Of a stretch of 64,000 bases of DNA, positions 6,013-62,994 are shown piece after piece (the stretch's first letter is position 1; every line of letters begins with the position of its first letter). The DNA comes from a virus (Duplodnaviria; Heunggongvirae; Uroviricota; Caudoviricetes). The notes under the pieces were generated by a model. That model worked only from the letters and a program-made list of their open reading frames with translations. It was not told the DNA's origin and searched no databases. The DNA is taken from the IMG/VR virus record IMGVR_UViG_3300033076_000972, positions 43,329-107,328 of that record. One strand, 5' to 3'. The translations under genes and the position numbers were made by a program.

Positions 6013-7079
6013 ACGTAATGCATTATGTTGGCGGATTAAATTACGCAGGTACAAATCGAACTATGGAAAGATTTGTACGAGAAATGGATAAAAATAAATT
6101 TAATGTTTACGTTTTATATAATGAGGTCACAAATGAATTGTATAATCGAACTGATGAATTATCTCGATTAGAGTATTTTAAAAACATTCCAAACATAACT
6201 TTAGTTCCATATAAAATGTGGGACAGGGATGCTGAATACTATTCACCAAATAACACTGATTTTTTTGAAGTTATTTCATCTTTACCTGAAAAAATTGATA
6301 TTTTTCACTTTCACAGAAGTGGTCACACTGAATGGCCAATAACACCAAAGACTGTTAATTTATTTAATAAAGTTGTTGAAACTAATATATTTGCTAGTAG
6401 TGATAATGTAATAAATTTGGATTTATCATTATGCGTGTCAAACCATATTTACTCAAGAAAATCAAATAAAAATAATACCAAAGTATTATACAATGGTATT
6501 GAATTACCTAAAACAGACAAAAATTTACGAGATAAATTAGATATATCTAATGATACATTTGTTTTTGGTAGAATTGGTCGAGATAGTAATTTTACTGATA
6601 TTGCGCTAAAAGCATTTAAAGAAGTTGAAGACAGAAGGGCAAATGTTAAATATATAATTGTAAATCCTTGTAGTAACACAAAAGAATTTGTTTCTAATAA
6701 TAACATTAAAAATGTAATTTTTTTAGACAAAATAATTGATGATGTTGAAATATCAAAATTTTTCAACACAATTGATTGTTTGGCCCATTATAGGTCAGAT
6801 GGTGAGTGTTGTCCTGTTAACATACAAGAATCCATGATTCATGGAAAACCTGTTATATCACACACATCAAATACATTTAATGGACAGGCTGAAATTATAT
6901 CTGATTGTGGTTTTGTGACCAACAACAGTTATGAATATTTTGCAAAGATGATGACACTTATTGATGATAAAAATTTATATCAAGAATTATCCAAAAAATC
7001 ATTTGATTTGGCAAATTCAACATATAGAATTGATGTGATTACAAGACAACTTGAAAATTATTATTTAGAATTGTTTTAA
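5997..7079 (+). CDS. GT-B (GT4-family) glycosyltransferase
   Basis: The C-terminal YRSDGECCPVNIQESMIHGKPVISH fits the E-x7-E / EAMA-G-PVI motif of retaining GT4 enzymes. Confidence 0.65.
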   Translation: MEKKLNVMHYVGGLNYAGTNRTMERFVREMDKNKFNVYVLYNEVTNELYNRTDELSRLEYFKNIPNITLVPYKMWDRDAEYYSPNNTDFFEVISSLPEKIDIFHFHRSGHTEWPITPKTVNLFNKVVETNIFASSDNVINLDLSLCVSNHIYSRKSNKNNTKVLYNGIELPKTDKNLRDKLDISNDTFVFGRIGRDSNFTDIALKAFKEVEDRRANVKYIIVNPCSNTKEFVSNNNIKNVIFLDKIIDDVEISKFFNTIDCLAHYRSDGECCPVNIQESMIHGKPVISHTSNTFNGQAEIISDCGFVTNNSYEYFAKMMTLIDDKNLYQELSKKSFDLANSTYRIDVITRQLENYYLELF

Positions 7080-7080
7080 A

Positions 7081-7776
7081 ATGGAAAAATATATTAGAAT
7101 GGATGATTACCCTCATGGTATGCCAAATTACAGACCAAATTACAAAGAAATAGTTACCGAGTGGGTTAATATATTTGAAAAATATAATATAAAATACATT
7201 TTAGGTGTGACACCACTTTTATTAAAAATGGATGACATACCCCTACTTCAAAAGATTATTAAAAAAGGTAAGATAGTAATGCACGGATTTAACCATAAAT
7301 TTGACCACCCTGGTGATTGGAATACCATTGTTGATACATGGGAACATGGCGGTGAGTTTATGAATATGAGTGAGAATAATATTGATATAAAATATAATCA
7401 ATCAAATAAAATTTTATCTATTTTTGATTCATATGATTCATCACATTTTATACCACCATTTAATTGTCTAACTCAAAATTTAATAAACGTTTTGTCTGAA
7501 AAAGGTGTCAAATACATTCACACTTGTGATAAAGAATACGATGAGTATAATTACAAAAATTTAGATTTTAAAAACATAACCCCAATCATATCAAAATATC
7601 ATAAAGGGTACGACCATGTACACGAAGTAACTAAAAGAATTGGTGGTGATATTGGACAGATTACCCTACACTGGATTTTTGATTCTAATTTTAATGGGTG
7701 GATAAACAATTATGAAAATTTTGCAAAAATATTAAATGAAGATACTGATTATACAGGAGAATGGCAGACACCCTGA
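7081..7776 (+). CDS. Hypothetical protein
   Basis: Long ORF in the co-oriented block. No confident motif found. Confidence 0.5.
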   Translation: MEKYIRMDDYPHGMPNYRPNYKEIVTEWVNIFEKYNIKYILGVTPLLLKMDDIPLLQKIIKKGKIVMHGFNHKFDHPGDWNTIVDTWEHGGEFMNMSENNIDIKYNQSNKILSIFDSYDSSHFIPPFNCLTQNLINVLSEKGVKYIHTCDKEYDEYNYKNLDFKNITPIISKYHKGYDHVHEVTKRIGGDIGQITLHWIFDSNFNGWINNYENFAKILNEDTDYTGEWQTP

Positions 7777-38217: not shown

Positions 38218-38230
38218 GACCCCTTTTTTT
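38199..38230. terminator. Bidirectional intrinsic terminator
   Basis: AAAAAAAGGGGTCAATTAAGACCCCTTTTTTT. Confidence 0.7.
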
Positions 38231-39068
38231 AATCCCATAACATCCATCGTTCAGTTTTAGGTTTGTGTTCGTGGAATGTGTTACCCAAACTTTCAATCAT
38301 TTGTTTAACCATTTCAATTGCGTTGAACACATCTTCAATAACAACATACTCATTTGGTGTGTGGTAATTGTAATAACCACAAGATACATTCAAACAAGCA
38401 ATGTTAAATTTTGATGCAATTTGTGAAACGTCGGTGTACGGGTGTTTCATCAATTCATGTTTGTCTCCAAAATGTTCTTGAAGCAAAGGTCCAACCTTTT
38501 CAAAGAAAGGTGAATTACGGTCAAAAAGTTTTACACCCCAACAATATTCAGTTACCATCCAAGATTCGGGAGCATCAAACTGAATGCAGTAACCAACGTT
38601 AGAGAAAAACTCAGGACTTGCTTTTCTTGAACCATGACAACCTGTTTCTTCAGATACGAAGAAAGCGGCTTTAATTACTGGTAGTTGTTCAAGGAGATTC
38701 AAACATGAGTAGACACCACATTTGTCATCACCACCAATTCCTGTTGGGTGACCAGTCACAGCCTGGTAAGCCTTAAAAGAATCTTTTAGTTCCCCATAAA
38801 CATTTGGGAGTTGTTCTTCCTCTACAACCATTTCGGTAATCGAGTGTACGGTGTCCGTATGTGAAATTACACAAGGATAGATATCCGCATCACCTTTAGT
38901 GACATAAACGTTACCAAACTCATCGATTGTGTGGTTGTATCCTTTTTCAGTAAAATACTTGTCAAGATACTCAATCATAAGAGTTTCTTGATAAGTTTTA
39001 GTCGGAATAGAAAGGACTTCTTTTAGGTGTTGTATTTTTTCTGGTGTCATTTGACCACAAAGATACAA
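38229..39068 (-). CDS. M20/M28-like zinc metallopeptidase (short form)
   Basis: Metal-ligand motifs are ISHTDTVH (H-x-D), GIGGDDKCG (G-x-x-D-D-K-G) and SEETGCHGS (EE-G). Confidence 0.5.
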   Translation of the reverse strand: MYLCGQMTPEKIQHLKEVLSIPTKTYQETLMIEYLDKYFTEKGYNHTIDEFGNVYVTKGDADIYPCVISHTDTVHSITEMVVEEEQLPNVYGELKDSFKAYQAVTGHPTGIGGDDKCGVYSCLNLLEQLPVIKAAFFVSEETGCHGSRKASPEFFSNVGYCIQFDAPESWMVTEYCWGVKLFDRNSPFFEKVGPLLQEHFGDKHELMKHPYTDVSQIASKFNIACLNVSCGYYNYHTPNEYVVIEDVFNAIEMVKQMIESLGNTFHEHKPKTERWMLWD

Positions 39069-41246: not shown

Positions 41247-41277
41247 TTGGCAGTTTGAGATAATATTTATATCTTTG
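41247..41277 (+). promoter_or_regulatory. Bacteroidetes-type sigma-A promoter (TTG-N20-TATCTTTG) upstream of the tmRNA
   Basis: TTG at 41247-41249 and TATCTTTG at 41270-41277 match the Bacteroidetes -33/-7 consensus TTG / TAnnTTTG. Confidence 0.5.
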
Positions 41278-41381: not shown

Positions 41382-41765
41382 GGGGATGAATGGAATCGAC
41401 AGGTATTGTTGATTGATGGATGCACGTATGAGCTGAGTTAACTCATTAAAAACTGATTTAAAAAATTAGACGGCAACGTTTTGAACAAAATGGCAGCTAT
41501 CGGTTTAATCCGTGAAGATGCTTCTGTATTAGCTTAATTGTTAGTACAACTCAGGTCGGGGGACATATAACCTAGGAACAGAAGTCTTGAGAGATGTGGT
41601 TTCTATCTTAAAAGAAACAAGTGGAGGATTAGTTCTCAGTAAACCGAACCACTATAAAATAAGGGAATTGTGAAGTTCGGAACATTAGCAAATGTTGACC
41701 TAAACGTGTAGTATCTATTGGTTAAGGTAGACTGGACGAGGGTTCGATACCCTCCATCTCCACCA
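41382..41765 (+). ncRNA. ssrA: tmRNA (SsrA), phage-encoded, with the CCA encoded in the DNA
   Basis: The 5' end GGGGATGAATGGAATCGACAGG aligns with E. coli GGGGCUGAUUCUGGAUUCGACGGG. The 3' end GGACGAGGGTTCGATACCCTCCATCTCCACCA aligns with GGACGCGGGUUCAACUCCCGCCAGCUCCACCA. A 7-bp acceptor stem (GGGGATG/CATCTCC, one G-U pair) and a T-arm GAGGG-TTCGATA-CCCTC are present. Upstream of the tag, AAAAAUUAGAC is followed by the resume codon GGC at 41472, giving the tag GNVLNKMAAIGLIREDASVLA and a TAA at 41535. Confidence 0.8.
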
Positions 41766-41771
41766 AATTAA

Positions 41772-41800
41772 AGTGGTCAAATTTGACCACTTTTTTTTTT
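41772..41800 (+). terminator. Intrinsic terminator after the tmRNA
   Basis: AGTGGTCAAATTTGACCACT hairpin followed by T10. Confidence 0.75.
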
Positions 41801-41856
41801 GTAAATTAGAAAAATTGTCGTATCTTTGTATTGTTAATCACTACCACTATGACAAC
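41791..41856 (+). repeat. Direct repeat copy 1 (T-run + promoter + 5' gene start), about 65 nt
   Basis: Near-identical to 42331-42395, with three mismatches. Confidence 0.8.
41799..41828 (+). promoter_or_regulatory. Promoter TTG-N19-TATCTTTG (duplicated cassette, copy 1)
   Basis: TTG at 41799 and TATCTTTG at 41821-41828. The ATG at 41849 is about 14 nt from the predicted TSS. Confidence 0.55.
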
Positions 41857-42310
41857 AAAAACAAACATCAACTCAATCATAACTCTCACTGAAGGCGTAA
41901 TGTCAGGAGACGTATTCTACGGTTCTTTTAACACCGTACCTAAAGACAAAAAAATCACCGTAATGGTTTCCAACCACATCAAAGATGTCAACAAAGAATA
42001 TGAATTCCGTATCGCAGGAAAATGCAAGGCAGGTTTCATCAGCATCCATGATACCAAAGGAACTCCTCACAGTATCATCGCAGGATACAAGAAAAACGCT
42101 TTGGTTAATATCCAAGTAAAATCTGAACACGGTCATTGGATGAACGTATTCACCACTAAGGGTAGCAAGTGGTACGGAATTGACAAAGGGTTCTTAGAAG
42201 TGTTGACCGTAGGTGATATGAGACAGTCTTTCCCTGACATGTGTGACTCAAACATTTGGCAGTCGATGGGAGCTCAAACTTGGGCTGATAAAGCTTTCAC
42301 CCAAAATTAA
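41849..42310 (+). CDS. Hypothetical protein, paralog A (153 aa from the ATG)
   Basis: The ORF track starts at TTG 41831, inside the promoter; the first ATG is at 41849. Its N-terminus is shared with paralog B. Confidence 0.55.
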   Translation: MTTKTNINSIITLTEGVMSGDVFYGSFNTVPKDKKITVMVSNHIKDVNKEYEFRIAGKCKAGFISIHDTKGTPHSIIAGYKKNALVNIQVKSEHGHWMNVFTTKGSKWYGIDKGFLEVLTVGDMRQSFPDMCDSNIWQSMGAQTWADKAFTQN

Positions 42311-42311
42311 A

Positions 42312-42339
42312 AATTTCCCTCTTCGGAGGGATTTTTTTT
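42312..42339 (+). terminator. Intrinsic terminator
   Basis: CCCTCTTCGGAGGG hairpin followed by T8. Confidence 0.75.
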
Positions 42340-42395
42340 GTAAATTAGAAAAATTGCCGTATCTTTGTATTGTTAATCACTACCACTATGACAAA
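42331..42395 (+). repeat. Direct repeat copy 2
   Basis: Near-identical to 41791-41856. Confidence 0.8.
42338..42367 (+). promoter_or_regulatory. Promoter TTG-N19-TATCTTTG (duplicated cassette, copy 2)
   Basis: TTG at 42338 and TATCTTTG at 42360-42367. Confidence 0.55.
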
Positions 42396-43128
42396 CACAA
42401 CCACTAAACTCAACGCTAAAATCAGAAACTACAACGGTAAAAACGACTTCATCATCAAAATGAAACAAGTCGTATTCCAATACGGAGGTCTAACTGAAAA
42501 ACAAGCCCAAGTCGCAGAAAAAGCCTTGGCAGAACCAACAAAGGTTGAAACTCGTTTTCTTCCTGACAATATGAGAAGAATCGCCGACTACGCAGGTGAA
42601 AACACATTTGTGTTGGATGTGAAAGGTAAATTCCTCAAATACGGTACCTTGTCAGACGCACAAGTAACCGCAGCCAACAAACAAATCCAAAAAGAAGAAG
42701 ACGCCAAAAACCGAATGGACGTGAACATCGACGTAATTGGTGAGACAATCGTGGTGGGTCGTAAAACAGGTGAAGATTTGAAAAAACAAAAAGGTTTGGA
42801 ATTTAACCCCTTGTTGTTGGATATCACTGAGGTTATGACCTTAACCGCAAAAGCAGTGAAATTCAAAGGTAAGTTGACAACCAAAAACTGTGGTGTATGT
42901 AAATCATGTGGTCGTACATTGACCGATGAGTTCTCTCGTCTAACAGGATACGGTAAGACATGTGCTAAACACTTGAAAGTTGAGTACATCAAAGACAAGT
43001 CTGAAGTTGAACGTTTCAATAAAGATGTCCTTGCAAGAATCGAGGAAATTGGTGAAATGGAATTTTGGGTTCCTCGTCGTCAAATCAAAGTGTGGAACGG
43101 AGTTTCAGCAATGTTGTTGAAATTTTAA
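42388..43128 (+). CDS. Hypothetical protein, paralog B, with a C-terminal Cys cluster
   Basis: First ATG at 42388. The N-terminus MTNTTTKLN parallels paralog A. The C-terminus has CGVCKSCGRTL…CAKH, a CxxC…C…C zinc-ribbon-like arrangement. Confidence 0.55.
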   Translation: MTNTTTKLNAKIRNYNGKNDFIIKMKQVVFQYGGLTEKQAQVAEKALAEPTKVETRFLPDNMRRIADYAGENTFVLDVKGKFLKYGTLSDAQVTAANKQIQKEEDAKNRMDVNIDVIGETIVVGRKTGEDLKKQKGLEFNPLLLDITEVMTLTAKAVKFKGKLTTKNCGVCKSCGRTLTDEFSRLTGYGKTCAKHLKVEYIKDKSEVERFNKDVLARIEEIGEMEFWVPRRQIKVWNGVSAMLLKF

Positions 43129-43193: not shown

Positions 43194-43703
43194 ATGGAAA
43201 AAGTATTAGTATTAAACAGCGATTACACACCCTTGAACGTAACAACAATGCGTAGAGGATTTGTATTGGTTGATAAGGGTAAAGCTGAAGTATTGAAAAA
43301 AGATGAAAATCCGATTGTTACTACTATTGGTAATTTTGTAAGACCAATCATCATTAGATTACTCAGTTATATCAGAATTAAGAAAAACGCCAAAGACATC
43401 AAGATTTCTCGTTCAAGAGTTTATCAAAGGGACGGACATGCTTGTGTATATTGTGGAGGAAATAAGAAATTGACAATTGACCATGTAATACCAAAATCTC
43501 GTGGTGGTGATAATACTTGGGAAAACATGGTCACTTGTTGTTTTGATTGTAACTCAAGGAAGGGAAGTAAGACACCTGAAGAAGCTGGTCTTAAATTTAG
43601 GGTTCGTCCTTATAGACCTTCAGTGTTTTCTGAACTTGTTGCGGGTCGTGCTGCACATATTTGGGAAGAATTCCAACACGATTTATTTGGTTTTTCAAAT
43701 TAA
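43194..43703 (+). CDS. Free-standing HNH endonuclease
   Basis: CVYCGGNKKLTIDHVIPKSRGGDNTWENMVTCCFDCNSRKG is an HNH motif with a Cys4 zinc site. The first ATG is at 43194 (the ORF track starts at TTG 43164). Confidence 0.75.
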   Translation: MEKVLVLNSDYTPLNVTTMRRGFVLVDKGKAEVLKKDENPIVTTIGNFVRPIIIRLLSYIRIKKNAKDIKISRSRVYQRDGHACVYCGGNKKLTIDHVIPKSRGGDNTWENMVTCCFDCNSRKGSKTPEEAGLKFRVRPYRPSVFSELVAGRAAHIWEEFQHDLFGFSN

Positions 43704-43716
43704 TTTCTTATCTTTG
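43687..43716 (+). promoter_or_regulatory. Promoter TTG-N19-TATCTTTG upstream of the tRNA-Leu gene
   Basis: TTG at 43687 and TATCTTTG at 43709-43716. The tRNA 5' end is at 43748. Confidence 0.5.
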
Positions 43717-43781
43717 TATAAGAAGTAAAAATGTTCTTTGATTTAATGCTCGGGTGATGGAATGGTAGACATGAAAGACTT

Positions 43782-44474
43782 AAACGTATTTTGTATACCT
43801 AATTGATATTTATCAATATGGGAAATGAAAAATATACAAAAGAGTTTTTGGAATCTATCGTTAAAGAATGTGGGTCAATAAGACAAGTTTTAATAAAACT
43901 TGGACTTAAAGAAGCTGGTGGTAATTATCATAATATTAAAACAAGAATAAAATTGTTTGATATTGATATTACCCATTTTCACGGAATGGTTTGGAATAAA
44001 GGTAAAAAATGGTCAAAAACCAAAGATTTATCTTCTAAATTAGTTGAACACTCAACATATTCGTCAGGTCTTCCAATTAATACATATGTTTTGAAAAATC
44101 AATTGTTAAAAATTGGTATTAAAACCCACATATGTGAAAATTGTGAATCTATTGAATGGTTGGGTGTTGAAATTCCTTTAGAATTACACCACATAAATGG
44201 TAATCGGTTTGATAATCGTATTGAAAATATACAACTATTATGTCCGAATTGTCATGCTTTAACTGAAAATTATAGAGCCAAAAATATGAGTGCTAGATGA
44301 GAAATTGTCTAAGTAGAACTCCGTAAATTCGGTGAACCCTGTAAAATGGGAATACCGAGCCAAGCCGAAAGGAAGGTGTAGAGACTAGACACGGAGAACC
44401 TAAGTCAGTTGATATGGTTAAGGTATAGTCCAGACCACAAACTATAAATAGGTAACGAAAGTTATAGTGGTAAG
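43782..44474 (+). mobile_element. Group I intron (carries an HNH ORF) in the tRNA-Leu anticodon loop
   Basis: The conserved core is present: an R-like GAGACTAGACACGG (44381-44394) and S element AAGGTATAGTCC (44420-44431) form P7 (GACTA/TAGTC). A U precedes the 5' splice site and the intron ends in a G (44474). This is the same insertion site as the cyanobacterial and plastid tRNA-Leu(UAA) intron. Confidence 0.7.
43818..44300 (+). CDS. Intron-encoded HNH homing endonuclease
   Basis: CENCESIEWLGVEIPLELHHINGNRFDNRIENIQLLCPNCHALTE is an HNH motif with CxxC…CxxC. The ORF lies entirely in the 5' part of the intron, before the ribozyme core. First ATG at 43818. Confidence 0.7.
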   Translation: MGNEKYTKEFLESIVKECGSIRQVLIKLGLKEAGGNYHNIKTRIKLFDIDITHFHGMVWNKGKKWSKTKDLSSKLVEHSTYSSGLPINTYVLKNQLLKIGIKTHICENCESIEWLGVEIPLELHHINGNRFDNRIENIQLLCPNCHALTENYRAKNMSAR

Positions 44475-44526
44475 AAAATCTTTTGGGTAGTAATACCCGT
44501 GCGGGTTCGAGTCCCGCCCCGAGTAC

Positions 44527-51768: not shown

Positions 51769-51787
51769 TTTTTTTATTGTATCTTTG
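51757..51787 (+). promoter_or_regulatory. Promoter TTG-N20-TATCTTTG; the ATG lies about 5 nt from the -7 box, which implies a leaderless or near-leaderless mRNA
   Basis: TTG at 51757, TATCTTTG at 51780-51787, and the first ATG at 51792. Confidence 0.5.
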
Positions 51788-51791
51788 TAAC

Positions 51792-52442
51792 ATGAAATTG
51801 ATTTTAGAAAAGAATCAACAATTGTTTTTTACAAGTGATACTCACTATTCACACTCAAACATCTGTCGTGCAACGACTCGTTGGAACGGTGCGGATAATT
51901 TGACTCGTGATTTTAAATCGCTTGAACACATGAATGACACATTGGTAAACAATATCAATGAAGTTGTTGGTGAAAATGACATTTTGATTCACTTGGGTGA
52001 CTGGTCTTTTGGTGGATTTGAACAAATTCAAGATTTCCGTAATCGAATTTTGTGTAAAAACATTCACTTAATTTACGGAAACCACGACCACCACATTAGA
52101 AGAAATAAAGGTGATATACAAGAGATTTTTAGTTCAACTCAAGATTATATACACTTGGATTTAAGGATTCCAAACGGTAAAGAAGTTGATAAAATGACTT
52201 TGGTTTGTATGCACTACCCAATTGCAAGTTGGGATGGAATGAACGATGGTGTAATCCACTTACACGGTCACGTTCACTTACCACCTAATTTAAGACTTGC
52301 CGAAGGTAAAGCGATGGATGTTGGTGTTGACGGAAATAATTTGTATCCTATCAACATAAAAGAAATCCGTTCTATTATGAAAGATAGACCTCACAGAAAA
52401 TTAACATTACCTAAAGACCATCACGAAAAAAGAATTGACTAA
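51792..52442 (+). CDS. Calcineurin-like metallophosphoesterase
   Basis: Motifs SDTHYSH (D-x-H), GDWSFGG (GD), GNHDHH (GNHD/E) and HGHVH (GH-x-H). Confidence 0.75.
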   Translation: MKLILEKNQQLFFTSDTHYSHSNICRATTRWNGADNLTRDFKSLEHMNDTLVNNINEVVGENDILIHLGDWSFGGFEQIQDFRNRILCKNIHLIYGNHDHHIRRNKGDIQEIFSSTQDYIHLDLRIPNGKEVDKMTLVCMHYPIASWDGMNDGVIHLHGHVHLPPNLRLAEGKAMDVGVDGNNLYPINIKEIRSIMKDRPHRKLTLPKDHHEKRID

Positions 52443-52443
52443 T

Positions 52444-52866
52444 ATGACAACTTATACATCACAAGGAAAAAACCTTTATCTATTACGTGGAGTACCAGGA
52501 GCTGGTAAATCTACATTGGCAAAACAACTTGGTTGTACTCATTTTGAGACTGACACTTATTTTATGGTAGACGGTGAATACAAATTTGACCCGTCCAAAT
52601 TAAAAGATGCTCACAAGTGGTGTCAAGATGAAGTACATAATGCGATGATTCTGAATATCACCACAGGTGAACATTCTGATATTGTAGTTTCTAATACATT
52701 TACCCAAGCATGGGAAATGGAACCATATATGGAACTTGCTAAAAGTTGGGGATATAGAGTATTTTCATTGGTTGTTGAGCATAGACACGAGGGGTCTAAT
52801 CAACACAATGTTCCCGAAGAAAAGTTACAACAAATGACTGACAGATTTGAACTTAAATTAAAATAA
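52444..52866 (+). CDS. P-loop polynucleotide kinase-like protein (5'-OH kinase candidate)
   Basis: Walker A LLRGVPGAGKSTLAKQLG resembles the T4 Pnk and bacterial Pnkp kinase domains. It is 143 aa and starts 1 nt after the phosphoesterase stop. Confidence 0.55.
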   Translation: MTTYTSQGKNLYLLRGVPGAGKSTLAKQLGCTHFETDTYFMVDGEYKFDPSKLKDAHKWCQDEVHNAMILNITTGEHSDIVVSNTFTQAWEMEPYMELAKSWGYRVFSLVVEHRHEGSNQHNVPEEKLQQMTDRFELKLK

Positions 52867-53803: not shown

Positions 53804-56800
53804 ATGAAGAAGTTATTGCTTTTTATGATGTTCTTGTTCAGTTTCTTGACTGTACAAGCAACCCACATGATGGGTGCAGATGTTTCCTACAAATGTTTGG
53901 GAAATGGAAAATATAAAATTATTGCTAAAGTTTACCGAGATTGTAGGGGTGTGTCTATGGGTACACCATCATTTGGTGCTTATGCAGGGTTAAACGGTGG
54001 AAATGGTTGTGGTAACTATACACTAAGTGGATTATCAAGGGTTTCAATTAAAGATGTTACCACAAGATGCTCAACTACTAGTAACCCGTGTGGTTCACCT
54101 AACTCAGCGTTTGCTAATAAAGGTGTTGAGGAACACACATTTGAAGCTACGATTGATTTTAATACGTCACCATTAAATAATTTTGTTAATAAATCAACAT
54201 GTTGTGAGGTTACATTTTATGTAAATGAATGTTGTAGAAATGGTGCAATTAGTACAGGTCAAGCCTCTCAAAATTTTTATGCAACTGCAATGATTAATAT
54301 TTGTAACCTTCAGAAAATGAAGGACAAATGTAACAGTTCACCACAACTATCAAACCCACCTATTGCCTTTCTATGTTGTAATCAGCCTTGGTATTATAAT
54401 AATGGTGCCATAGATACAATAGATTATGATTCAATTTCATATAAATTAGTCAATGGACTTCAAGGTATTCCAAATAGTTCGGTATCATACGCCTCACCAT
54501 TTACCGCAAAAGTTCCCATGACACCGTATTGTGTACCACCTACAACCATAAACTGTGTGCCAAACCCAAAAACAAATCCACCGAGAGGTTTTTATTTTGA
54601 CACCACAAATGGTGATGTTATTACGACACCAACTAAATGTGATGAATCTGCCGTTATATGTGTTGAACAGACTGAATGGAGAAAAGATACGTCAGGTGTA
54701 TGGCGTGTAATTGGTAGAACAAGACGTGACATGCAAGTTTGGGTTAGGGATGATTGTGGTTATAATAAAGCACCAACTCTTGGTCCAAAGTTTACATATC
54801 AAGTTTGTGAGGGTGAAACATTAAAATTCAAAGTGGAATCTGACGATGAAACATTTACACCGTATCAAACAACTCCTGACACAACAACAATGAAGTGGAA
54901 TGCGGGTATTCCCGGTGCAAAGTTTACATTAGCAAATAAAAGTGATTGGCCTGAAAAACGTAAGTCATATGCTTGGTTTGAATGGACACCTCCGATTGGT
55001 TCAGCTTCTGATATATCATATTCATTTACAGTTACAGTTAGTGACCAACACTGTGAACCACCAGCAACATCAATTCGTTCATTCAAGATTAAGGTTAATC
55101 CAAAACCTAAATCAAAACGTAGATATACACAATTAAAGTGTGGTAGGTTTGCCATGGAAGCATATGAAATATATGCAGCATCAAGTTATTCTTGGAGTGT
55201 TAGAGATACCTTAGCGAAAGAATTATTTTACTCTTCAAAGAAAACAGATACCATGAACTATTACTATGAAGGTAAGTACATTATAGTTCATAAATTAACA
55301 AGTGCTCAGTCATGTGTAACAATTTATAGTGATACTGTTTATCTAACACAACCACCAAAAGTAATATTGGCCGATGCTGATAGTTTTGCTTGTTATGGAA
55401 CAACTTTCAATCTCAAAGCAAAAGTTATTGCGGGTAAACCTACGTTGAAATATAAGTGGAACAACGGTGATACTTTGGACTATACCACAATCAAAAACTT
55501 CAAAAAAGATTCAACATTGATGTTGGAAGTAACGGATGGTGATGGTTGTAAATTCCGTGATACAACAAAAACATTTGTTAAACCATTACCTGTTGTTAGT
55601 TTGGGTTCAGATAAAGTTATCTGTACATATGAAACTAACACATTTGATGGTCAAAACAACGATACCGTAAAATACTTGTGGAGTACTGGTGATACTACCC
55701 GTTACATGACAACTAATCTCAAGGGAATCTATTGGGTTAAAATTACTGACACCACATATATGTGTGTTAAATACGACACGGCAATATTAGTTGTGAATGA
55801 TACTGTAATATCCAATGCGGGACCAAACCAAGCAATTTGTGATAAAGACACATTCATATTAAAGGCAACACACAATCCGTTTATTTTAACTCCAACATAT
55901 ACTTGGGGTGGATTGGGTAATTTGTCAACCTATAAGTTGAAATCTGATATAACAAAATCAGCTTATATGTTTACATTGAAGACGGTGATTACTCAAAATG
56001 GTCACACCTGTGAAGACATGGATACTATTTTTGTTAGAGTTAAACCATTACCAAAAATTAGTTGGAATCCAAAACCATTAAAACCACAATGTTATTCTTA
56101 TGGTGATATTTGGATGGAACCATTCTTGGTTAAACCTCATAACTTTGGAACATATGAAATATGGAGCGGAAGCAAAAATAAAATAGGAAACATTGTTACG
56201 AATCCATCTAACGGACGATTCCTGTTCAACACCCAATCATTGGACAACAGCAAACTACAGGGAGGTAATAACTACACCACCAAAATGTATGTTAAGTTTA
56301 ATGATACAAATGGTTGTTATAATATAGATTCAACAACCCAAGTAATTTATGGTACTCCATTAATTCAGTTAAAAAGTGCAACTGTTTGTCAGAACGCTAA
56401 ATTTTTAATGATGGACAATGTGAGAGTAAGACCCGCAACCAAAAACGGTGTAAGTATGTTATGGCAGGTAGTGAGAGGACCTGCAGGTGTTGACACTTCC
56501 AAGTTATTGATGAATATCTCAACAAATTCAACACCAAACATAATGTTTTGGTTTGGCACTGGCAATTCAAATTACTATAAGGGAAAATATACATTCAGAC
56601 TTACTGTTAAAGACGTACTCACTGGTTGTCAAAGCACAGATACTGTTGACATAAACGTTGCTGGTGAACCCGTTGTTTCATTAAAACCTCTACCAATATT
56701 CTGTGAGAACTCAGGTGTGAATATCAATTTGTTTGATTATGTTGATGTCAGTTATGTTACGGGTGGAATTGTAACAAAAAAACTGTCTATTCAAGATGTT

Positions 56801-58345
56801 AACGGTGATAAAAATGACCCAAGAGTGTTGACTGATTTATCCTCAGGATTTTTCAGAACAAGTCTTGGTGTGGGAACATATAAGATTAAAGTTCTTAGTA
56901 CAATATTGGACCCTAATTATTTAGTAACATGCTCAAGAGTAGATAGTTTCGATGTTGTTATCAGTTATAAACCTGACCTCAGAAAAATAGATATGGGTTT
57001 TTGTTCTACTCGTCCTTGGCCATTTGATTTGAAAACAGTAATTACATCTGAAAGTTGGGGTGTTGTAAAAATCACTTATCCTGATGGGGAATTTTTTACA
57101 CCCACTCCAAAGGCAAAAGGGTATATTGGTGGATTTAATAATCCCTATAAATTCATGATGGTAGGTGAAAGTCAATATGGTTGTAAAGATACTGAAATAC
57201 TAAAACTCACTGTGATGAATCAACCTGAGATTAAATTTGTTCCACCATTTGTAAGTTGTGGTAAAGATACTTGGACTCTAAAATTGGATACTGCGAATAT
57301 TGACCCAGCAGTTAAATTTAGATGGGTTGTTAATACAGGTCTTTATGATACTTTAACACCTCCTGGTGGAGAAGTGATTGGTGGAAAATGGGGGTTTGGT
57401 AAAAAACAATATATTCCAGATAACAAAGATACCTCAAGGGGTTACTTCACGGTAAAATTCAAATCATGGAATGCACCTCTTTGTGCTAAAGTTATTGACT
57501 CTGTTAAAGTTTTAATAACACCTTATCCTGAACCAGACTTTATAACAACAAATGGGTGTCAACCACATTCTATAATGTTCACACCAACAGAAAAAAGAGG
57601 TATCAAATCGATGACTTATTCTTGGGGAATAAATGATACATTTTCACAAGGTGGTAATTCAAGTTGGTCAAAGACATTTACTGACGTTGGATATTACAGA
57701 ACATCTTTAAGTGCTGTCAATACAACATTTACTCCCGACAAAATATGTGGAACTGTGATTACTAAAACATTTGAGGTATATCCAAAACCATACGCAATAT
57801 TTAGTACTGACCCATTATATAAAACAACAATTGCTTTACCTAGATTTAAGACGATAAACTCATCAAGTGTTAGTCAAAATCCATTTATAACTAAATTGGA
57901 TTACAGTTGGAGTTGGGGAAAAACATTCAAAACGGGTACTGACTCTACCAAGTCACCAAACATTATATTTGGTAAAGATACAGGACTATATTGGATTAAG
58001 TTAGTAACGACTACAGATAAAGGGTGTAAAGATTCTACCATGACTCGTGTTGTTATTGGACCTGATATTATAATATTTGTCCCTGACGCATTCACACCTG
58101 ATAATGCTGGTCCAAATGAAAACAATACATTTATTCCAAAAGTTACTAATCATAAAACATTTTATATGGGTGTTTACAACCGCTGGGGTGAAAAATTGTA
58201 TGAAACAACTGACCTAACAAAAGGTTGGGATGGTAATTATTTAGGAAAATCAGCACAACAAGGGGTTTATGTATATAAAATTATTGTAACTTCAATGGAA
58301 GATAAGGTTTTTCAATATAACGGAACTTTTACATTACTTAGATAA
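53804..58345 (+). CDS. Giant secreted adhesin-like protein with a T9SS type-B (gliding-motility-associated) C-terminal domain
   Basis: Signal peptide MKKLLLFMMFLFSFLTVQA, then 1513 aa that are Cys/Thr/Asn-rich. The C-terminal FVPDAFTPDNAGPNENNTFIP…GVYNRWGEKLYETTDLTKGWDGNYLGKSAQQGVYVYKI matches the SprB-type CTD consensus (fsPNGDGiND…FNRWGekvf…gWDG…GvYyY). Confidence 0.8.
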   Translation: MKKLLLFMMFLFSFLTVQATHMMGADVSYKCLGNGKYKIIAKVYRDCRGVSMGTPSFGAYAGLNGGNGCGNYTLSGLSRVSIKDVTTRCSTTSNPCGSPNSAFANKGVEEHTFEATIDFNTSPLNNFVNKSTCCEVTFYVNECCRNGAISTGQASQNFYATAMINICNLQKMKDKCNSSPQLSNPPIAFLCCNQPWYYNNGAIDTIDYDSISYKLVNGLQGIPNSSVSYASPFTAKVPMTPYCVPPTTINCVPNPKTNPPRGFYFDTTNGDVITTPTKCDESAVICVEQTEWRKDTSGVWRVIGRTRRDMQVWVRDDCGYNKAPTLGPKFTYQVCEGETLKFKVESDDETFTPYQTTPDTTTMKWNAGIPGAKFTLANKSDWPEKRKSYAWFEWTPPIGSASDISYSFTVTVSDQHCEPPATSIRSFKIKVNPKPKSKRRYTQLKCGRFAMEAYEIYAASSYSWSVRDTLAKELFYSSKKTDTMNYYYEGKYIIVHKLTSAQSCVTIYSDTVYLTQPPKVILADADSFACYGTTFNLKAKVIAGKPTLKYKWNNGDTLDYTTIKNFKKDSTLMLEVTDGDGCKFRDTTKTFVKPLPVVSLGSDKVICTYETNTFDGQNNDTVKYLWSTGDTTRYMTTNLKGIYWVKITDTTYMCVKYDTAILVVNDTVISNAGPNQAICDKDTFILKATHNPFILTPTYTWGGLGNLSTYKLKSDITKSAYMFTLKTVITQNGHTCEDMDTIFVRVKPLPKISWNPKPLKPQCYSYGDIWMEPFLVKPHNFGTYEIWSGSKNKIGNIVTNPSNGRFLFNTQSLDNSKLQGGNNYTTKMYVKFNDTNGCYNIDSTTQVIYGTPLIQLKSATVCQNAKFLMMDNVRVRPATKNGVSMLWQVVRGPAGVDTSKLLMNISTNSTPNIMFWFGTGNSNYYKGKYTFRLTVKDVLTGCQSTDTVDINVAGEPVVSLKPLPIFCENSGVNINLFDYVDVSYVTGGIVTKKLSIQDVNGDKNDPRVLTDLSSGFFRTSLGVGTYKIKVLSTILDPNYLVTCSRVDSFDVVISYKPDLRKIDMGFCSTRPWPFDLKTVITSESWGVVKITYPDGEFFTPTPKAKGYIGGFNNPYKFMMVGESQYGCKDTEILKLTVMNQPEIKFVPPFVSCGKDTWTLKLDTANIDPAVKFRWVVNTGLYDTLTPPGGEVIGGKWGFGKKQYIPDNKDTSRGYFTVKFKSWNAPLCAKVIDSVKVLITPYPEPDFITTNGCQPHSIMFTPTEKRGIKSMTYSWGINDTFSQGGNSSWSKTFTDVGYYRTSLSAVNTTFTPDKICGTVITKTFEVYPKPYAIFSTDPLYKTTIALPRFKTINSSSVSQNPFITKLDYSWSWGKTFKTGTDSTKSPNIIFGKDTGLYWIKLVTTTDKGCKDSTMTRVVIGPDIIIFVPDAFTPDNAGPNENNTFIPKVTNHKTFYMGVYNRWGEKLYETTDLTKGWDGNYLGKSAQQGVYVYKIIVTSMEDKVFQYNGTFTLLR

Positions 58346-58346
58346 T

Positions 58347-58532
58347 ATGAAATTGATTAAAATTATTTTTTTGTGTATTTTATTAGTAGGGTGTGAAAAA
58401 GAACCAATTAACATAAACACTGAAAAACTTAAAAAATATCAAAGTGAAATTAAAACAACTCCTAAAAAAAATAGAAGAAAGTTTAAATTGGGTAAAAAGT
58501 CGTTCCATCTTTCAAAAATTCTAAAGAAATAA
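58347..58532 (+). CDS. Small lipoprotein
   Basis: Lipobox LLVGC (MKLIKIIFLCILLVGCEK), 61 aa, with a terminator after it. Confidence 0.45.
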   Translation: MKLIKIIFLCILLVGCEKEPININTEKLKKYQSEIKTTPKKNRRKFKLGKKSFHLSKILKK

Positions 58533-58535
58533 TTT

Positions 58536-58569
58536 AAAAACCCAAGATTTGATTATCTTGGGTTTTTTT
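58536..58569 (+). terminator. Intrinsic terminator
   Basis: AAAAACCCAAGATTTGATTATCTTGGGTTTTTTT. Confidence 0.75.
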
Positions 58570-58583
58570 ATTATAATAACTTC

Positions 58584-59264
58584 ATGAAAAAAAATATAAT
58601 AGGGATGATACTTTTAATCATTTTAGTAATTTTCTGTTTTATTAATATAAGTTCGAATTTATATTCAAAACCAAATTTACCAAATGATACCATAATTGTA
58701 ATACCAAAAGTTCAAGATACCGTTGTTGATATTAACGGAAAGTATGGAACTTTTATTGGTGATTCACACACATCAAATCATAATTCAGGATGGCAAGTTA
58801 TTGTTTGTAAAAAAACGGGTTTAAGAATGAACAATTTGTCTGTTTCAGGTAAAACAACAGGTTGGATGCTTGAAACTGCTAAAGTATCATTACACAAAGG
58901 TATTGATTATTGTTTTGTCTATGGTGGTGCCAATGATATGTATACAAAATCAATCACACCTAAAAGAGCGGTTTCAAATATTCAACAAATAGTTGATTTA
59001 TGTCACACATATAACATTCATTGTGTTGTTTTAACAGGTTTTGACCCGATTAAATGTACAAGAACATCAAATCCGGCTTATGGTCCAAGATACGCTCAAT
59101 TTCAAAAAATGTTAATGGATTCAATATCAGGTGCAACTGTTGTTGACACACGTGTAATTGATAGAACTGGATGTTGGGATGAATTATGTCATATGAATCC
59201 TGAAGGGCACAAAAAGATTGGGATGGAAGTAATTAAAACAATGAAATTTCATATTATCAAATAA
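58584..59264 (+). CDS. SGNH/GDSL-family hydrolase with an N-terminal signal anchor
   Basis: Block I FIGDSHT (GDS-x), block III GGANDM (G-x-ND) and block V DELCHMNPEGH (D-x-x-H). Hydrophobic N-terminus. Confidence 0.7.
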   Translation: MKKNIIGMILLIILVIFCFINISSNLYSKPNLPNDTIIVIPKVQDTVVDINGKYGTFIGDSHTSNHNSGWQVIVCKKTGLRMNNLSVSGKTTGWMLETAKVSLHKGIDYCFVYGGANDMYTKSITPKRAVSNIQQIVDLCHTYNIHCVVLTGFDPIKCTRTSNPAYGPRYAQFQKMLMDSISGATVVDTRVIDRTGCWDELCHMNPEGHKKIGMEVIKTMKFHIIK

Positions 59265-59270
59265 TTTTAT

Positions 59271-59278
59271 TATCTTTG
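59271..59278 (+). promoter_or_regulatory. -7 box TATCTTTG (no clear -33 TTG) directly upstream of the RNA ligase gene
   Basis: The motif sits 5 nt before the GTG at 59283. Confidence 0.3.
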
Positions 59279-59282
59279 TACT

Positions 59283-60317
59283 GTGTTACCTAAACTGAAC
59301 AAATATCATAATGATGGACTGTTATATAAACAGACACACCCAACATTACCGTTAACTATATGGAACTACACACCTGCGGTTCAATACGGTGAAAAATGGG
59401 ATGAAGTTACCTTGGCTTGTAGAGGTTTAGTTACTGACAACGAAGGTAATATTGTTGCAAGACCATTTAAAAAATTCTTCAATATAGAGGAAAACAAACA
59501 CACACCTACCCAAGATTTTGAAGTTTTTGAAAAAATGGATGGTTCTTTGGGTATTATATTCAAATACAATGGTGAAGTGATTTACGCAACTCGTGGTTCA
59601 TTCACATCTGACCAGGCGAAATGGATGGAAAACTACTGTAAAGAATATAACTTCAAAGATATATTAGTTGAAGGATTTACCTACCTATTTGAAATTATCT
59701 ATCCTGAAAACCGTATTGTTGTTGACTATGAAGGTCAAGAAAGATTGGTTTTACTCGGTATAATTAAAACTGAAACAGGTGAAGAAATACCGTATGATGA
59801 TATTGTGGTTGCGCCTTGGGATATTGTAGAAAAATATGATGGTATTCGGGATTATTCCGAATTAAAGAATAAAGTTTTACAAAATCATGAGGGATTTGTA
59901 GTTCGTTTTTCTAATGGAGACCGAATGAAAATCAAAGGTGAGGAATATCTACGTCTACATAAAATAATGACCAATATATCAACTACTGGTGTATGGGAAC
60001 ACTTATCAAAAGGTGGTGATATAAATGATTTACTCAAAGACGTACCTGATGAATTTTACAAGAAAGTAAAAGAATATGCGGATTTACTTAAGTATGGTTA
60101 TTATCAAGTTTCTGAATATTGTGGAAAAGCTCACGACTATTTCCGATATGGAAAGTATAATGATAGAGAAGTAGAACCAACTAAAAAACAATTTGCAGAC
60201 CACGTTATGAATTATGGTCATCCACCATATAGAGCAGTAATGTTTGCAATGTGGGATAAAAAACCTTATGATAAATTGATATGGAACATATTAAAACCGG
60301 AATTTAAAAAACTATAA
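59283..60317 (+). CDS. ATP-dependent RNA ligase, Rnl1 family (T4 RnlA-like)
   Basis: Motif I FEKMDGSLG (K-x-DGSL), motif IV HEGFVVRF and motif V MKIKGEEY. The N-terminal stretch ACRGLV…RPFKKFFNIEEN parallels T4 Rnl1 ECRGIMF…RPMEKFFNLNEN. The only in-frame start is GTG. Confidence 0.75.
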   Translation: MLPKLNKYHNDGLLYKQTHPTLPLTIWNYTPAVQYGEKWDEVTLACRGLVTDNEGNIVARPFKKFFNIEENKHTPTQDFEVFEKMDGSLGIIFKYNGEVIYATRGSFTSDQAKWMENYCKEYNFKDILVEGFTYLFEIIYPENRIVVDYEGQERLVLLGIIKTETGEEIPYDDIVVAPWDIVEKYDGIRDYSELKNKVLQNHEGFVVRFSNGDRMKIKGEEYLRLHKIMTNISTTGVWEHLSKGGDINDLLKDVPDEFYKKVKEYADLLKYGYYQVSEYCGKAHDYFRYGKYNDREVEPTKKQFADHVMNYGHPPYRAVMFAMWDKKPYDKLIWNILKPEFKKL

Positions 60318-60965: not shown

Positions 60966-60981
60966 TTGTATATTTGAAGAC

Positions 60982-62351: not shown

Positions 62352-62528
62352 ATGGAACTATTATATATTGTACTTGGAACGTGGATTGGAATAGTTTTTA
62401 CTTATTTTCAATGGTACAGACCTATGGATGAAAAAATCAAAAACCTTGAAGAAGGAATTCACGATTGTATTAAAGCGGGTTTGATGGGACCAACAAACGG
62501 TGGTTCTGTCGATAAAGACATGGATTAA
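62352..62528 (+). CDS. Small membrane protein (58 aa, single TM; holin-like size)
   Basis: MELLYIVLGTWIGIVFTYFQW is one hydrophobic helix, followed by a charged tail. It is below the cutoff of the ORF track, and its stop abuts the next gene. Confidence 0.3.
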   Translation: MELLYIVLGTWIGIVFTYFQWYRPMDEKIKNLEEGIHDCIKAGLMGPTNGGSVDKDMD

Positions 62529-62532
62529 AATT

Positions 62533-62994
62533 ATGATAACATTTCAGGAAATTGAACGTAAGTTTTTATTAAAACGGTTCCCACGTCTTGCAAAAATTAA
62601 TACGGTATATCAAATCGAACAATGGTACCATGCCGATGGGTTTAGGTATAGACATCAACTTGAAATCACAACCGGTGATATCAAGATATTCAAGACAAAA
62701 AAAACCAACATTTCAAAAGGGGTAAACCAAGAAGAAGAAACTATTTTAAGCCAAAATGAGTTTCAACAACTTGATTTGGCAAATTCTCTTCATATTAAAA
62801 AGACAAGAACTGTTGTAAAACACAAAGGACACAAATTAGAAATTGATAAATACGAAGGTATGAACATTGTCATTATGGAAATCGAACTTGGTGACATTAA
62901 TGAAAAATACTCACTACCAAAATATATCGAAAAAGAAATTTTATACGAGGTGACGGGTATTAAAGAATTTAGTAATAAAAGTTTAGCAGAATGA
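62533..62994 (+). CDS. CYTH-domain protein (triphosphate tunnel metalloenzyme, CyaB / ThTPase-like)
   Basis: The N-terminal EIERKFLL is the defining ExExK motif of the CYTH fold. Length (153 aa) and downstream acidic residues fit this family. Confidence 0.6.
   Translation: MITFQEIERKFLLKRFPRLAKINTVYQIEQWYHADGFRYRHQLEITTGDIKIFKTKKTNISKGVNQEEETILSQNEFQQLDLANSLHIKKTRTVVKHKGHKLEIDKYEGMNIVIMEIELGDINEKYSLPKYIEKEILYEVTGIKEFSNKSLAE

Follow-up and report, generated by a model that had tools for sequence, protein, structure and literature searches.

Where does the message for an RNA ligase begin, and on which codon does its translation begin, when a promoter box ends only four bases ahead of a GTG? 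The question is raised by the gene at 59283-60317 in a 64,000-nucleotide stretch of viral DNA (hereafter the window), which covers positions 43,329 to 107,328 of the IMG/VR record IMGVR_UViG_3300033076_000972. The window has a G+C content of 31% and is part of the genome of an uncultured tailed phage with a Bacteroidota host; it is recognised as tailed-phage DNA because genes for a major head protein, a portal and a large terminase are present. A first-pass annotation, made from the letters alone, read the gene as an Rnl1-family RNA ligase with a GTG start on a near-leaderless transcript, and placed it within a tRNA-repair theme. Taken as a whole, the explanation that we consider likely is an Rnl1 ligase that works with heal-and-seal partners and is expressed from a leaderless mRNA beginning with 5′-GUG. 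The enzyme itself adds little to what is known of its family; the interest is regulatory and lies in the layout of a sigma-A box, four bases and a GTG. The coordinates of all features are collected in Table 1.

The ligase and its start codon

By its sequence, the product of this gene is an ordinary member of the Rnl1 family, as the first-pass annotation proposed. The Pfam profile PF09511 (RNA_lig_T4_1), a search suggested there, matches the protein with 78.9 bits against a cutoff of 28.3 (E 6.7e-22), and PHROG 562, the T4 RnlA type, covers residues 10-343 (E 2e-75). The best match in both sequence and fold is T4 RNA ligase 1 (RnlA, gp63; PDB 2c5u, 5tt6 and 9do4): the three entries for this enzyme are the best solved structures by sequence (E about 3e-24; for 2c5u, E 3e-24), and they again take the top three places in a Foldseek search with an AlphaFold2 (AF2) model of the ligase (E 3e-17), followed by archaeal Rnl3 and fungal Trl1 ligase domains. 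The Rnl2-type profile PF09414 (18.7 bits) and the DNA ligase profile PF01068 (13.5 bits, E 0.059) both remain below their own cutoffs. Identity as a DNA ligase or a capping enzyme, the outcome named in the first-pass annotation as the one to watch for, is ruled out, PF01068 being sub-threshold and T4 Rnl1 being the best match.

The likeness to T4 Rnl1 extends to motifs I, III, IV and V, to the residues of the N-terminal region that are specific to Rnl1, probably to a helical C-terminal domain, and to the setting, in that both ligases are phage-encoded beside end-healing enzymes. The strings quoted in the first-pass annotation are in place and align with those of T4 Rnl1 (ACRGLV with ECRGIMF, RPFKKFFNIEEN with RPMEKFFNLNEN, and KMDGSL with KEDGSL). 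Residue conservation was scored over 33 ligase homologues, and in these K84, D86 and G87 of motif I, E137 of motif III, E203-G204 of motif IV, and K216 and K218 of motif V are all invariant. The same is true of R47, K64 and F66, whose aligned counterparts in T4 Rnl1, R54, K75 and F77, are said to have been found essential by mutagenesis in the Shuman laboratory. The two enzymes differ in that their identity is only about 22-30%, that the T4 protein has 374 residues against 344 here, and that T4 K119 is replaced by R104. In the C-terminal region the AF2 model contains helices at residues 256-290, 301-311, 314-324 and 330-337. The phmmer alignment with the T4 protein stops at residue 266, short of this domain; the Foldseek alignment with 2c5u takes in the full-length ligase (380 columns) with a template-modelling (TM) score of 0.53 and a high root-mean-square deviation, from a model of moderate confidence.

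Proteins of this kind are abundant. More than 7,800 homologues are found in a large protein database, many of the metagenomic ones being 70-99% identical to the window ligase and 343-347 residues long, and some sources already label them as T4 RnlA family RNA ligases. Among GenBank phages no ligase is more than 60% identical; the closest in cultured phages are those of Streptomyces phages (Elmer, Wofford and others), which are annotated as RNA ligase and align over residues 5-343, but at an identity of only 36% and in phages with hosts of another phylum and another promoter logic. A nucleotide search against GenBank phages returned similarity to thymidylate synthase alone. Bacteroidota (Arcicella, Flavobacterium, Taibaiella, Kordia, Saprospiraceae) also encode Rnl1 proteins in their chromosomes; these are members of this family, with an N-terminus laid out in the same way and an identity of 40-46%.

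On the evidence of the reading frame and of its homologues, GTG 59283 is the start of the ligase. An in-frame TAA at 59262-59264, 21 nt before the GTG, is the stop of the upstream gene, and because of it no longer reading frame is possible. That residues 5-39 are translated follows from their conservation as protein sequence. The first-pass claim that no other in-frame start fits the conserved N-terminus holds well, since, together with the upstream TAA, homologues carry ATG or GTG at the same aligned codon. In the nearest clade all JGI-sourced homologues, for which the literal first residue is kept, begin with V, and in more distant clades M stands at the same aligned position (MLETLNKY..., MLKELDEL...). 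For comparison we assembled a set of 50 related viral contigs or loci of up to 328 kb, numbered with the prefix L. Start codons were read at the DNA level in 44 of them: the window clade and L038 use GTG and the others ATG, with L043 and L044 forming a third GTG clade.

The other in-frame canonical starts, TTG at codon 44 and ATG at codon 85 (inside motif I), can be rejected, as both would lose invariant residues and the second would lose the catalytic lysine as well. A fusion of the ligase with the upstream GDSL hydrolase through read-through of the stop codon, conceivable in that the two share a frame with no stop between the TAA and the GTG, was likewise rejected: other clades keep the ligase N-terminus after unrelated genes or after terminators. 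As a separate observation, in L043 (4449, plus strand) and L044 (8100, plus strand) the GTG lies exactly 4 nt after a box and the ligase appears truncated, with 188 residues before a stop; a match to the remainder of the ligase is found at some distance downstream, which points to a frameshift or an insertion.

The promoter box and the predicted 5′ end

The sequence TATCTTTG upstream of the ligase fits the -7 element of Bacteroidota sigma-A promoters, for which we used the consensus TAnnTTTG or TAHHTTTG. Four bases, tact, separate it from the start codon, so that, counted from the end of the box, the G of GTG comes fifth, at the distance that had been noted earlier. In Flavobacterium johnsoniae the sigma-A -7 element reads T-12 A-11 .. 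T-8 T-7 T-6 G-5 and is followed after 4 or 5 nt by the transcription start site (PMC6847099), and in Flavobacterium psychrophilum the box likewise occupies -12 to -5 (PMC9723704). Applied to TATCTTTG, this positional rule places +1 on the G of GTG, and the ligase mRNA is thus probably leaderless, with the sequence 5′-GUG at its end.

This prediction is strengthened by the behaviour of the box in related phages. The layout of a box, four bases and a start codon is found in 36 ligase genes of the related viral loci (25 with ATG, 11 with GTG); by their upstream sequence these make up 15 unrelated groups, several of which lie directly after a terminator hairpin, and the GTG cases are spread over three separate clades. 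By our estimate, the chance of an exact TAHHTTTG at one fixed position is about 5e-4 per gene in DNA of 31% GC. When all spacings between a box and a start codon that opens an open reading frame (ORF) of at least 60 codons were counted over 817 kb, comprising the related viral loci and the window, the 4-nt bin contained 99 cases and the 5-nt bin 10, against about 4 in each of the others, apart from a second, broad hump at 16-20 nt. For GTG starts alone the counts were 12 at 4 nt and 0-1 in the other bins. The Flavobacterium start-site rule and the recurrence of the 4-nt spacing in 15 contexts together lend strong, though indirect, support to the leaderless transcript of the first-pass annotation.

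A logo built from 76 unique cases of this layout has T-rich positions at -35/-34, an A-tract at -24 to -19, T at -16/-15, the box TAT[C/A]TTTG, and T at -4 and -1; the purine at +1 is a consequence of having picked ATG and GTG starts. Overall the logo resembles a promoter more than it resembles a translation signal alone. Within the window only two genes have the layout, the ligase and the phosphoesterase at 51792; in the phage group as a whole it is common to the repair partners and a large number of genes around them. The folding of the first 60 nt of the ligase mRNA is unremarkable (z = -0.81). A sigma-70 promoter scan of the window gave 68 hits against 65.7 expected, which is chance level and irrelevant to the Bacteroidota system. 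In the open-access literature we found no account of this layout in Bacteroidota phages.

It is informative to compare these phage genes with their cellular relatives. A chromosomal set of 52 ligase homologues, taken from Bacteroidota genome contigs that are in many cases hundreds of kilobases long, nearly always has ATG, and the visible boxes lie 16-19 nt upstream of it, with a small peak at a spacing of 4 nt. In contrast to the phage gene, which is predicted to be leaderless, the chromosomal genes would thus have leaders of about 12-15 nt, and they carry an extra, conserved TGCGTA. This motif is seen about 10-12 nt upstream of the -7-like box and about 45 nt upstream of the start in Arcicella, Flavobacterium, Kordia and others (L061, L065, L072, L074, L077, L079-81, L086, L087, L090, L091, L093, L094, L098, L100 and L102), and it may be the site of a regulator or an alternative sigma factor for the cellular ligase. 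One further contig, the 7.5-kb L051 (CAYYOB010000061.1), was binned as 'uncultured Polynucleobacter' (Proteobacteria), and yet encodes a ligase 79% identical to that of the window behind a box of the Bacteroidota type; the contig is probably of phage origin and wrongly binned.

In other phyla leaderless AUG and GUG mRNAs are a familiar phenomenon. Those of Mycobacterium, Streptomyces, Deinococcus and archaea likewise have a promoter element a short, constant distance away from the start codon; the difference is that the promoter here is the Bacteroidota sigma-A box TAnnTTTG. Shell and colleagues reportedly described in 2015 leaderless mRNAs that start at the start codon, with GUG accepted (cited in PMC6847099), and to our knowledge the T4 ligase gene is not known to be leaderless.

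Candidate healing partners and the intron-containing tRNA

The kinase and phosphatase pair invoked in the first-pass annotation is present, in two genes that overlap by 8 nt. The first encodes a metallophosphoesterase, a candidate 3′-end healing enzyme, whose DxH, GD and GNHD motifs align with those of aq_1665; PF00149 matches 16 of 17 phosphoesterase orthologues, while the window's own protein is not recognised by Pfam. The second encodes a candidate polynucleotide 5′-kinase that matches PHROG 2071 and PHROG 505, a polynucleotide kinase family (E 1.2e-6). A single-sequence PDB search with the kinase gave no match; a profile of its orthologues matched T4 polynucleotide kinase (1ly1, E 7.5e-4), a Mucorales kinase and, weakly, Pnkp1 and the kinase domain of Clostridium thermocellum Pnkp. 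The DxDxT motif of a T4-type HAD phosphatase was found in no window ORF of at least 60 residues.

The linkage of these genes to the ligase is widespread. Of the 50 viral loci, about 40 have the phosphoesterase close to the ligase and about 28 have the kinase there; in L018 and L019 all three genes are contiguous, each overlapping the next. A block splits the phosphoesterase and kinase from the ligase in the window clade, consisting of a 275-aa ORF, a 1,513-aa protein, a lipoprotein-like ORF and the GDSL hydrolase. Because the phosphoesterase and kinase share the box and four-base layout and in most loci are found in linkage with the ligase, a heal-and-seal role is suggested, and on these grounds it is probable that the three proteins act together in the repair of breaks in tRNA or other RNA. 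In one locus, L029 (8110, plus strand), the phosphoesterase itself has a GTG exactly 4 nt after the box.

Two other proteins recur in this neighbourhood. A gene for a CYTH-domain protein is often found beside the ligase or the phosphoesterase (L011, L012, L046, L024-26, L045), and its product is possibly an accessory part of the repair set. A protein with a cREC_REC domain (cyclic-phosphate processing receiver; PF20274, E 1.2e-21) is encoded near the CYTH, phosphoesterase and ligase genes in 13 related loci (L025 at 7000-7437, L020-22, L026, L028, L029, L032, L037, L040, L045, L047 and L023), with a box four bases before an ATG where this was checked, for example in L025, L026, L028, L045 and L047; no cREC domain protein is present in the 64-kb window. 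Such gene combinations are described in comparative work on phage RNA repair (PMC7824862).

The healing set is closer to that of bacterial Pnkp systems than to that of T4. T4 has a fused kinase-HAD phosphatase, Pnkp, whereas the window phage has a separate kinase and a separate metallophosphoesterase. The bacterial Pnkp/Hen1 and Pnkp1-Rnl-Hen1 systems, as in C. thermocellum and Capnocytophaga, likewise combine a P-loop 5′-kinase, a calcineurin-type phosphoesterase and an ATP-dependent ligase, and the metallophosphoesterase is reported to serve there as a 2′,3′-phosphatase (PMC3675462, PMC4411300). Unlike bacterial Pnkp, the window phage distributes these activities over three small proteins, its ligase is of the Rnl1 rather than the Pnkp type, and no Hen1 methyltransferase was seen in the window.

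From these comparisons a mechanism can be proposed. Host sigma-A polymerase would read the TATCTTTG box and begin transcription on the G of GTG, producing an mRNA that begins at the start codon and would also carry the two small downstream ORFs. These ORFs are packed right behind the ligase, the next promoter-like box being at 60969, and they are probably co-transcribed with it. The phosphoesterase would remove a 2′,3′-cyclic phosphate or 3′-phosphate from broken RNA and the kinase would phosphorylate the 5′ end. By analogy with its family, K84 of the ligase would attack ATP to give ligase-AMP, the AMP would be passed to the 5′-phosphate RNA end, and attack by the 3′-OH would seal the break. 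Together the three enzymes may mend breaks that the host inflicts on tRNA or other RNA.

The intron-containing tRNA that had been counted as part of the same theme is present in the window, but it has to be read differently. Default ARAGORN missed it, and with the intron option the program reported a 691-nt intron and called the tRNA Phe(aaa), an anticodon that is wrong by a 2-nt shift of the splice site. Once the site is moved by two bases, there is a perfect anticodon stem (aaaga/tcttt) with the loop CUUAAAA, the intron, now of roughly 693 nt, lies between U34 and A35, and a long variable arm is consistent with tRNA-Leu(UAA). In its 3′ part the intron fits the group I model RF00028 (35.4 bits, E 1e-7, core 44280-44455), a match missed by Rfam at the gathering threshold and found once the 3′ core was searched alone; an ORF within the intron (43803-44300) has a weak HNH match. 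Group I introns self-splice. Because the intron is of this type, the tRNA-Leu needs no ligase and is not evidence for a ligase pathway, and a role of the ligase in splicing it is ruled out. The tRNA-repair theme is thus upheld by the linkage of phosphoesterase, kinase and ligase in most loci, and loses the intron-containing tRNA as support. The U34/A35 site is the classic position of the cyanobacterial and plastid tRNA-Leu intron, found here in a Bacteroidota phage.

Competing readings and the surrounding genes

Several observations count against a leaderless ligase with heal-and-seal partners, and they bear on different parts of that explanation. Translation of leaderless mRNA in Escherichia coli needs a 5′-AUG (reference 33 in PMC7366714), and for this reason efficient use of a 5′-GUG by the ligase mRNA is uncertain; moreover, the leaderless GUG is a prediction. 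No terminator stands in the 18-nt gap between the GDSL gene and the ligase, and leadered read-through transcripts may coexist with the leaderless one. With regard to the enzymes, the kinase resembles polynucleotide kinases only weakly (E about 1e-3 to 1e-6), and the AF2 model of the ligase is of moderate confidence only, with a predicted local distance difference test score (pLDDT) of 76.5 and a predicted TM score (pTM) of 0.54. The ligase also scores 93.7 bits against the 242.25 demanded by the NCBIfam T4 RnlA equivalog TIGR02308; being so far under this cutoff, it cannot be assumed to have the substrate specificity of T4 RnlA, and is a family member but not necessarily a functional twin of that enzyme. 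A consensus -33 element, TTTG about 19-21 nt upstream of the box, is not matched, TTTC standing there instead; this mismatch counts little, because in F. johnsoniae the -33 element is weak or absent in many genuine promoters (PMC6847099). Very short leaders are a minority in the Bacteroidota studied, with leaders of at most 10 nt making up 13% in F. johnsoniae (PMC6847099), leaderless messages 5.5% in F. psychrophilum (PMC9723704), and leaders below 10 nt 3.7% in Bacteroides thetaiotaomicron (PMC7366714).

It is also worth considering a stronger role for read-through, in which the ligase is translated from a leadered polycistronic message that runs in from the GDSL gene, ribosomes re-initiate 18 nt after the TAA, and the box is at most a minor internal promoter. 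The short gap without a terminator and the shared direction of the two genes would allow this, and coupled translation of the ligase does take place in some phages, as judged from L018 and L019, where no box precedes the gene and it overlaps the stop codon of the kinase. However, the box stands at exactly 4 nt in 15 unrelated contexts, some of them after terminators and with no upstream ribosomes, and so sharp a spike is unexpected for a re-initiation signal. Furthermore, the GDSL gene, which has no recognisable sigma-A box upstream and follows a strong terminator (58536-58567), would be a poor source of early transcripts, and we consider read-through an unlikely account of ligase expression. 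A signal for translation initiation on longer mRNAs, rather than a promoter, is a reading to which we attach very little probability, even though the motif is directly upstream of start codons and Bacteroidota, which do not use Shine-Dalgarno sequences, draw on other features of the upstream region (PMC6847099). In sequence the motif does not differ from the sigma-A -7 box that was defined by experiment, and its spacing is exactly the one at which +1 falls on the start codon; the logo has promoter features at -35/-34, -24 to -19 and -16/-15; and the Kozak-like signal reported in F. johnsoniae is A-rich, not TTTG (PMC6847099). The same box is also found upstream of untranslated genes, TATCTTTG occurring at 41270, about 100 nt upstream of a transfer-messenger RNA (tmRNA) gene, and at 43709, ahead of the tRNA-Leu.

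A different doubt concerns what the enzyme is for. A protein with the Rnl1 fold might serve mainly outside RNA repair, in attaching tail fibres, which T4 gp63 does as its second activity, or in some other nucleic-acid joining or adenylylation reaction. PHROG 562 bears the label 'RNA ligase and tail fiber protein attachment catalyst', the low equivalog score would fit such a role, and so would a C-terminal domain distant enough from that of T4 for the phmmer alignment to end before it. Against this, every catalytic ligase residue is invariant, the gene is at a distance from the window's block of structural genes, and its linkage across many loci to the phosphoesterase, the kinase and, in relatives, cREC is what would be expected for RNA repair (PMC7824862). 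We therefore regard a non-repair role as improbable, somewhat more so than read-through, and keep to an Rnl1 ligase of an RNA-repair set that is probably expressed without a leader.

These findings are of use in three ways. For gene calling, true starts can be read from the box in these phages, including a GTG that looks suspicious, and the box corrects a wrongly chosen upstream TTG, an example being 51777, where the real start is the ATG at 51792. The ligase offers a testable case of a predicted leaderless 5′-GUG in a phylum without Shine-Dalgarno sequences, and a contrast between predicted leaderless phage genes and short-leader chromosomal ones. An abundant uncultured phage lineage conserves a repair set of separate kinase, metallophosphoesterase and Rnl1 ligase, often in the neighbourhood of CYTH and cREC proteins, which suggests that RNA-cleaving defences are common in Bacteroidota hosts. 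A wider reading, which we hold tentatively and would put somewhat short of even, is that a large, uncultured group of Bacteroidota phages expresses its whole repair set and many neighbouring accessory genes as leaderless mRNAs that begin with AUG or, in repeated cases, GUG, unlike their leadered cellular homologues. Were the repair set indeed leaderless, Bacteroidota ribosomes would initiate on 5′-GUG, and a deliberate use of leaderless messages would be suggested, for instance to have countermeasure genes translated while defences damage tRNAs or canonical initiation.

Table 1. Positions of the ligase gene, its control elements and other features, counted from the first base of the window
Feature	Position	Strand	Remarks
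Weak -33-like element TTTC	59247..59250	+	20 nt upstream of -7 box, within 3′ end of GDSL-hydrolase gene
Sigma-A-type -7 box TATCTTTG	59271..59278	+	TAnnTTTG/TAHHTTTG consensus; predicted -12 to -5
GTG start codon	59283..59285	+	First base is predicted +1
Rnl1 (T4 RnlA)-family ATP-dependent RNA ligase	59283..60317	+	GTG start, TAA stop 60315-60317, 344 aa
Rnl1-type N-terminal elements	59415..59495	+	C46-R47-G48, R60-P-F-K-K64-F-F66-N; equivalents of T4 R54, K75, F77
Motif I, K84-M-D-G-S-L	59532..59549	+	Aligned to T4 K99-EDGSL; K84 is predicted AMP-attachment lysine
Motif III region, F-E137-I-I-Y-P-E-N-R-I-V	59688..59720	+	Aligned to T4 E159
Motif IV, E203-G-F-V-V, and motif V, M-K216-I-K218-G	59889..59948	+	Aligned to T4 E227-G228 and K240/K242
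C-terminal all-helical domain, about residues 253-344	60039..60314	+	Probable counterpart of T4 Rnl1 C-domain
Two small ORFs, 89 aa and 125 aa	60322..60965	+	Kept downstream of ligase in closest loci
Second TATCTTTG box	51780..51787	+	4 nt before ATG 51792
Calcineurin-type metallophosphoesterase, 216 aa	51792..52442	+	PHROG 547, E 1.9e-42; candidate 3′-end healing enzyme
P-loop kinase, 143 aa, GVPGAGKS	52435..52866	+	PF13671 AAA_33, E 1.9e-13; candidate polynucleotide 5′-kinase
1,513-aa protein	53804-58345	+	Among the loci, found in L001, L002, L007 only
Small lipoprotein-like ORF	58347-58532	+	Between kinase and ligase
GDSL hydrolase	58584-59264	+	PF13472, hydrophobic N-terminus, secreted
CYTH-domain protein	62533..62994	+	PF01928, E 3.9e-4, below cutoff; PHROG 6660
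tRNA-Leu(UAA) with intron	43748-44526	+	Found with ARAGORN intron option
Full-length tmRNA gene	41382-41765	+	RF00023, 100.8 bits, E 3e-38; missed by ARAGORN

Within the block that splits the repair genes, the insert between kinase and ligase formed by the 1,513-aa protein, the lipoprotein-like ORF and the GDSL hydrolase is confined to the window clade and looks like a moron-type insertion. The C-terminus of the 1,513-aa protein may, by its appearance, be a sorting domain of the type IX secretion system (T9SS) or gliding-motility type.

Boxes elsewhere in the window also bear on start calls. Mechanical ORF calls choose a TTG or GTG inside or upstream of a box at 51777, at 62500 and in the minus-strand ORF 38229-39068. 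The position of the box and the orthologues favour the downstream ATG for the phosphoesterase (51792) and the CYTH protein (62533), and in the minus-strand ORF they favour the ATG that lies 7 nt after the box at 39065. A near-identical promoter, TTTG-N19-TATCTTTG within 'ttttttgtaaattagaaaaattg(t/c)cgTATCTTTGtattgttaatca', occurs twice on the plus strand, at 41791-41828 and 42330-42367, ahead of ORFs 41831-42310 and 42370-43128, the second of which has a DUF6011 match. Because the box ends just 2 nt before the listed TTG in these twins, the true starts of both ORFs probably lie further downstream.

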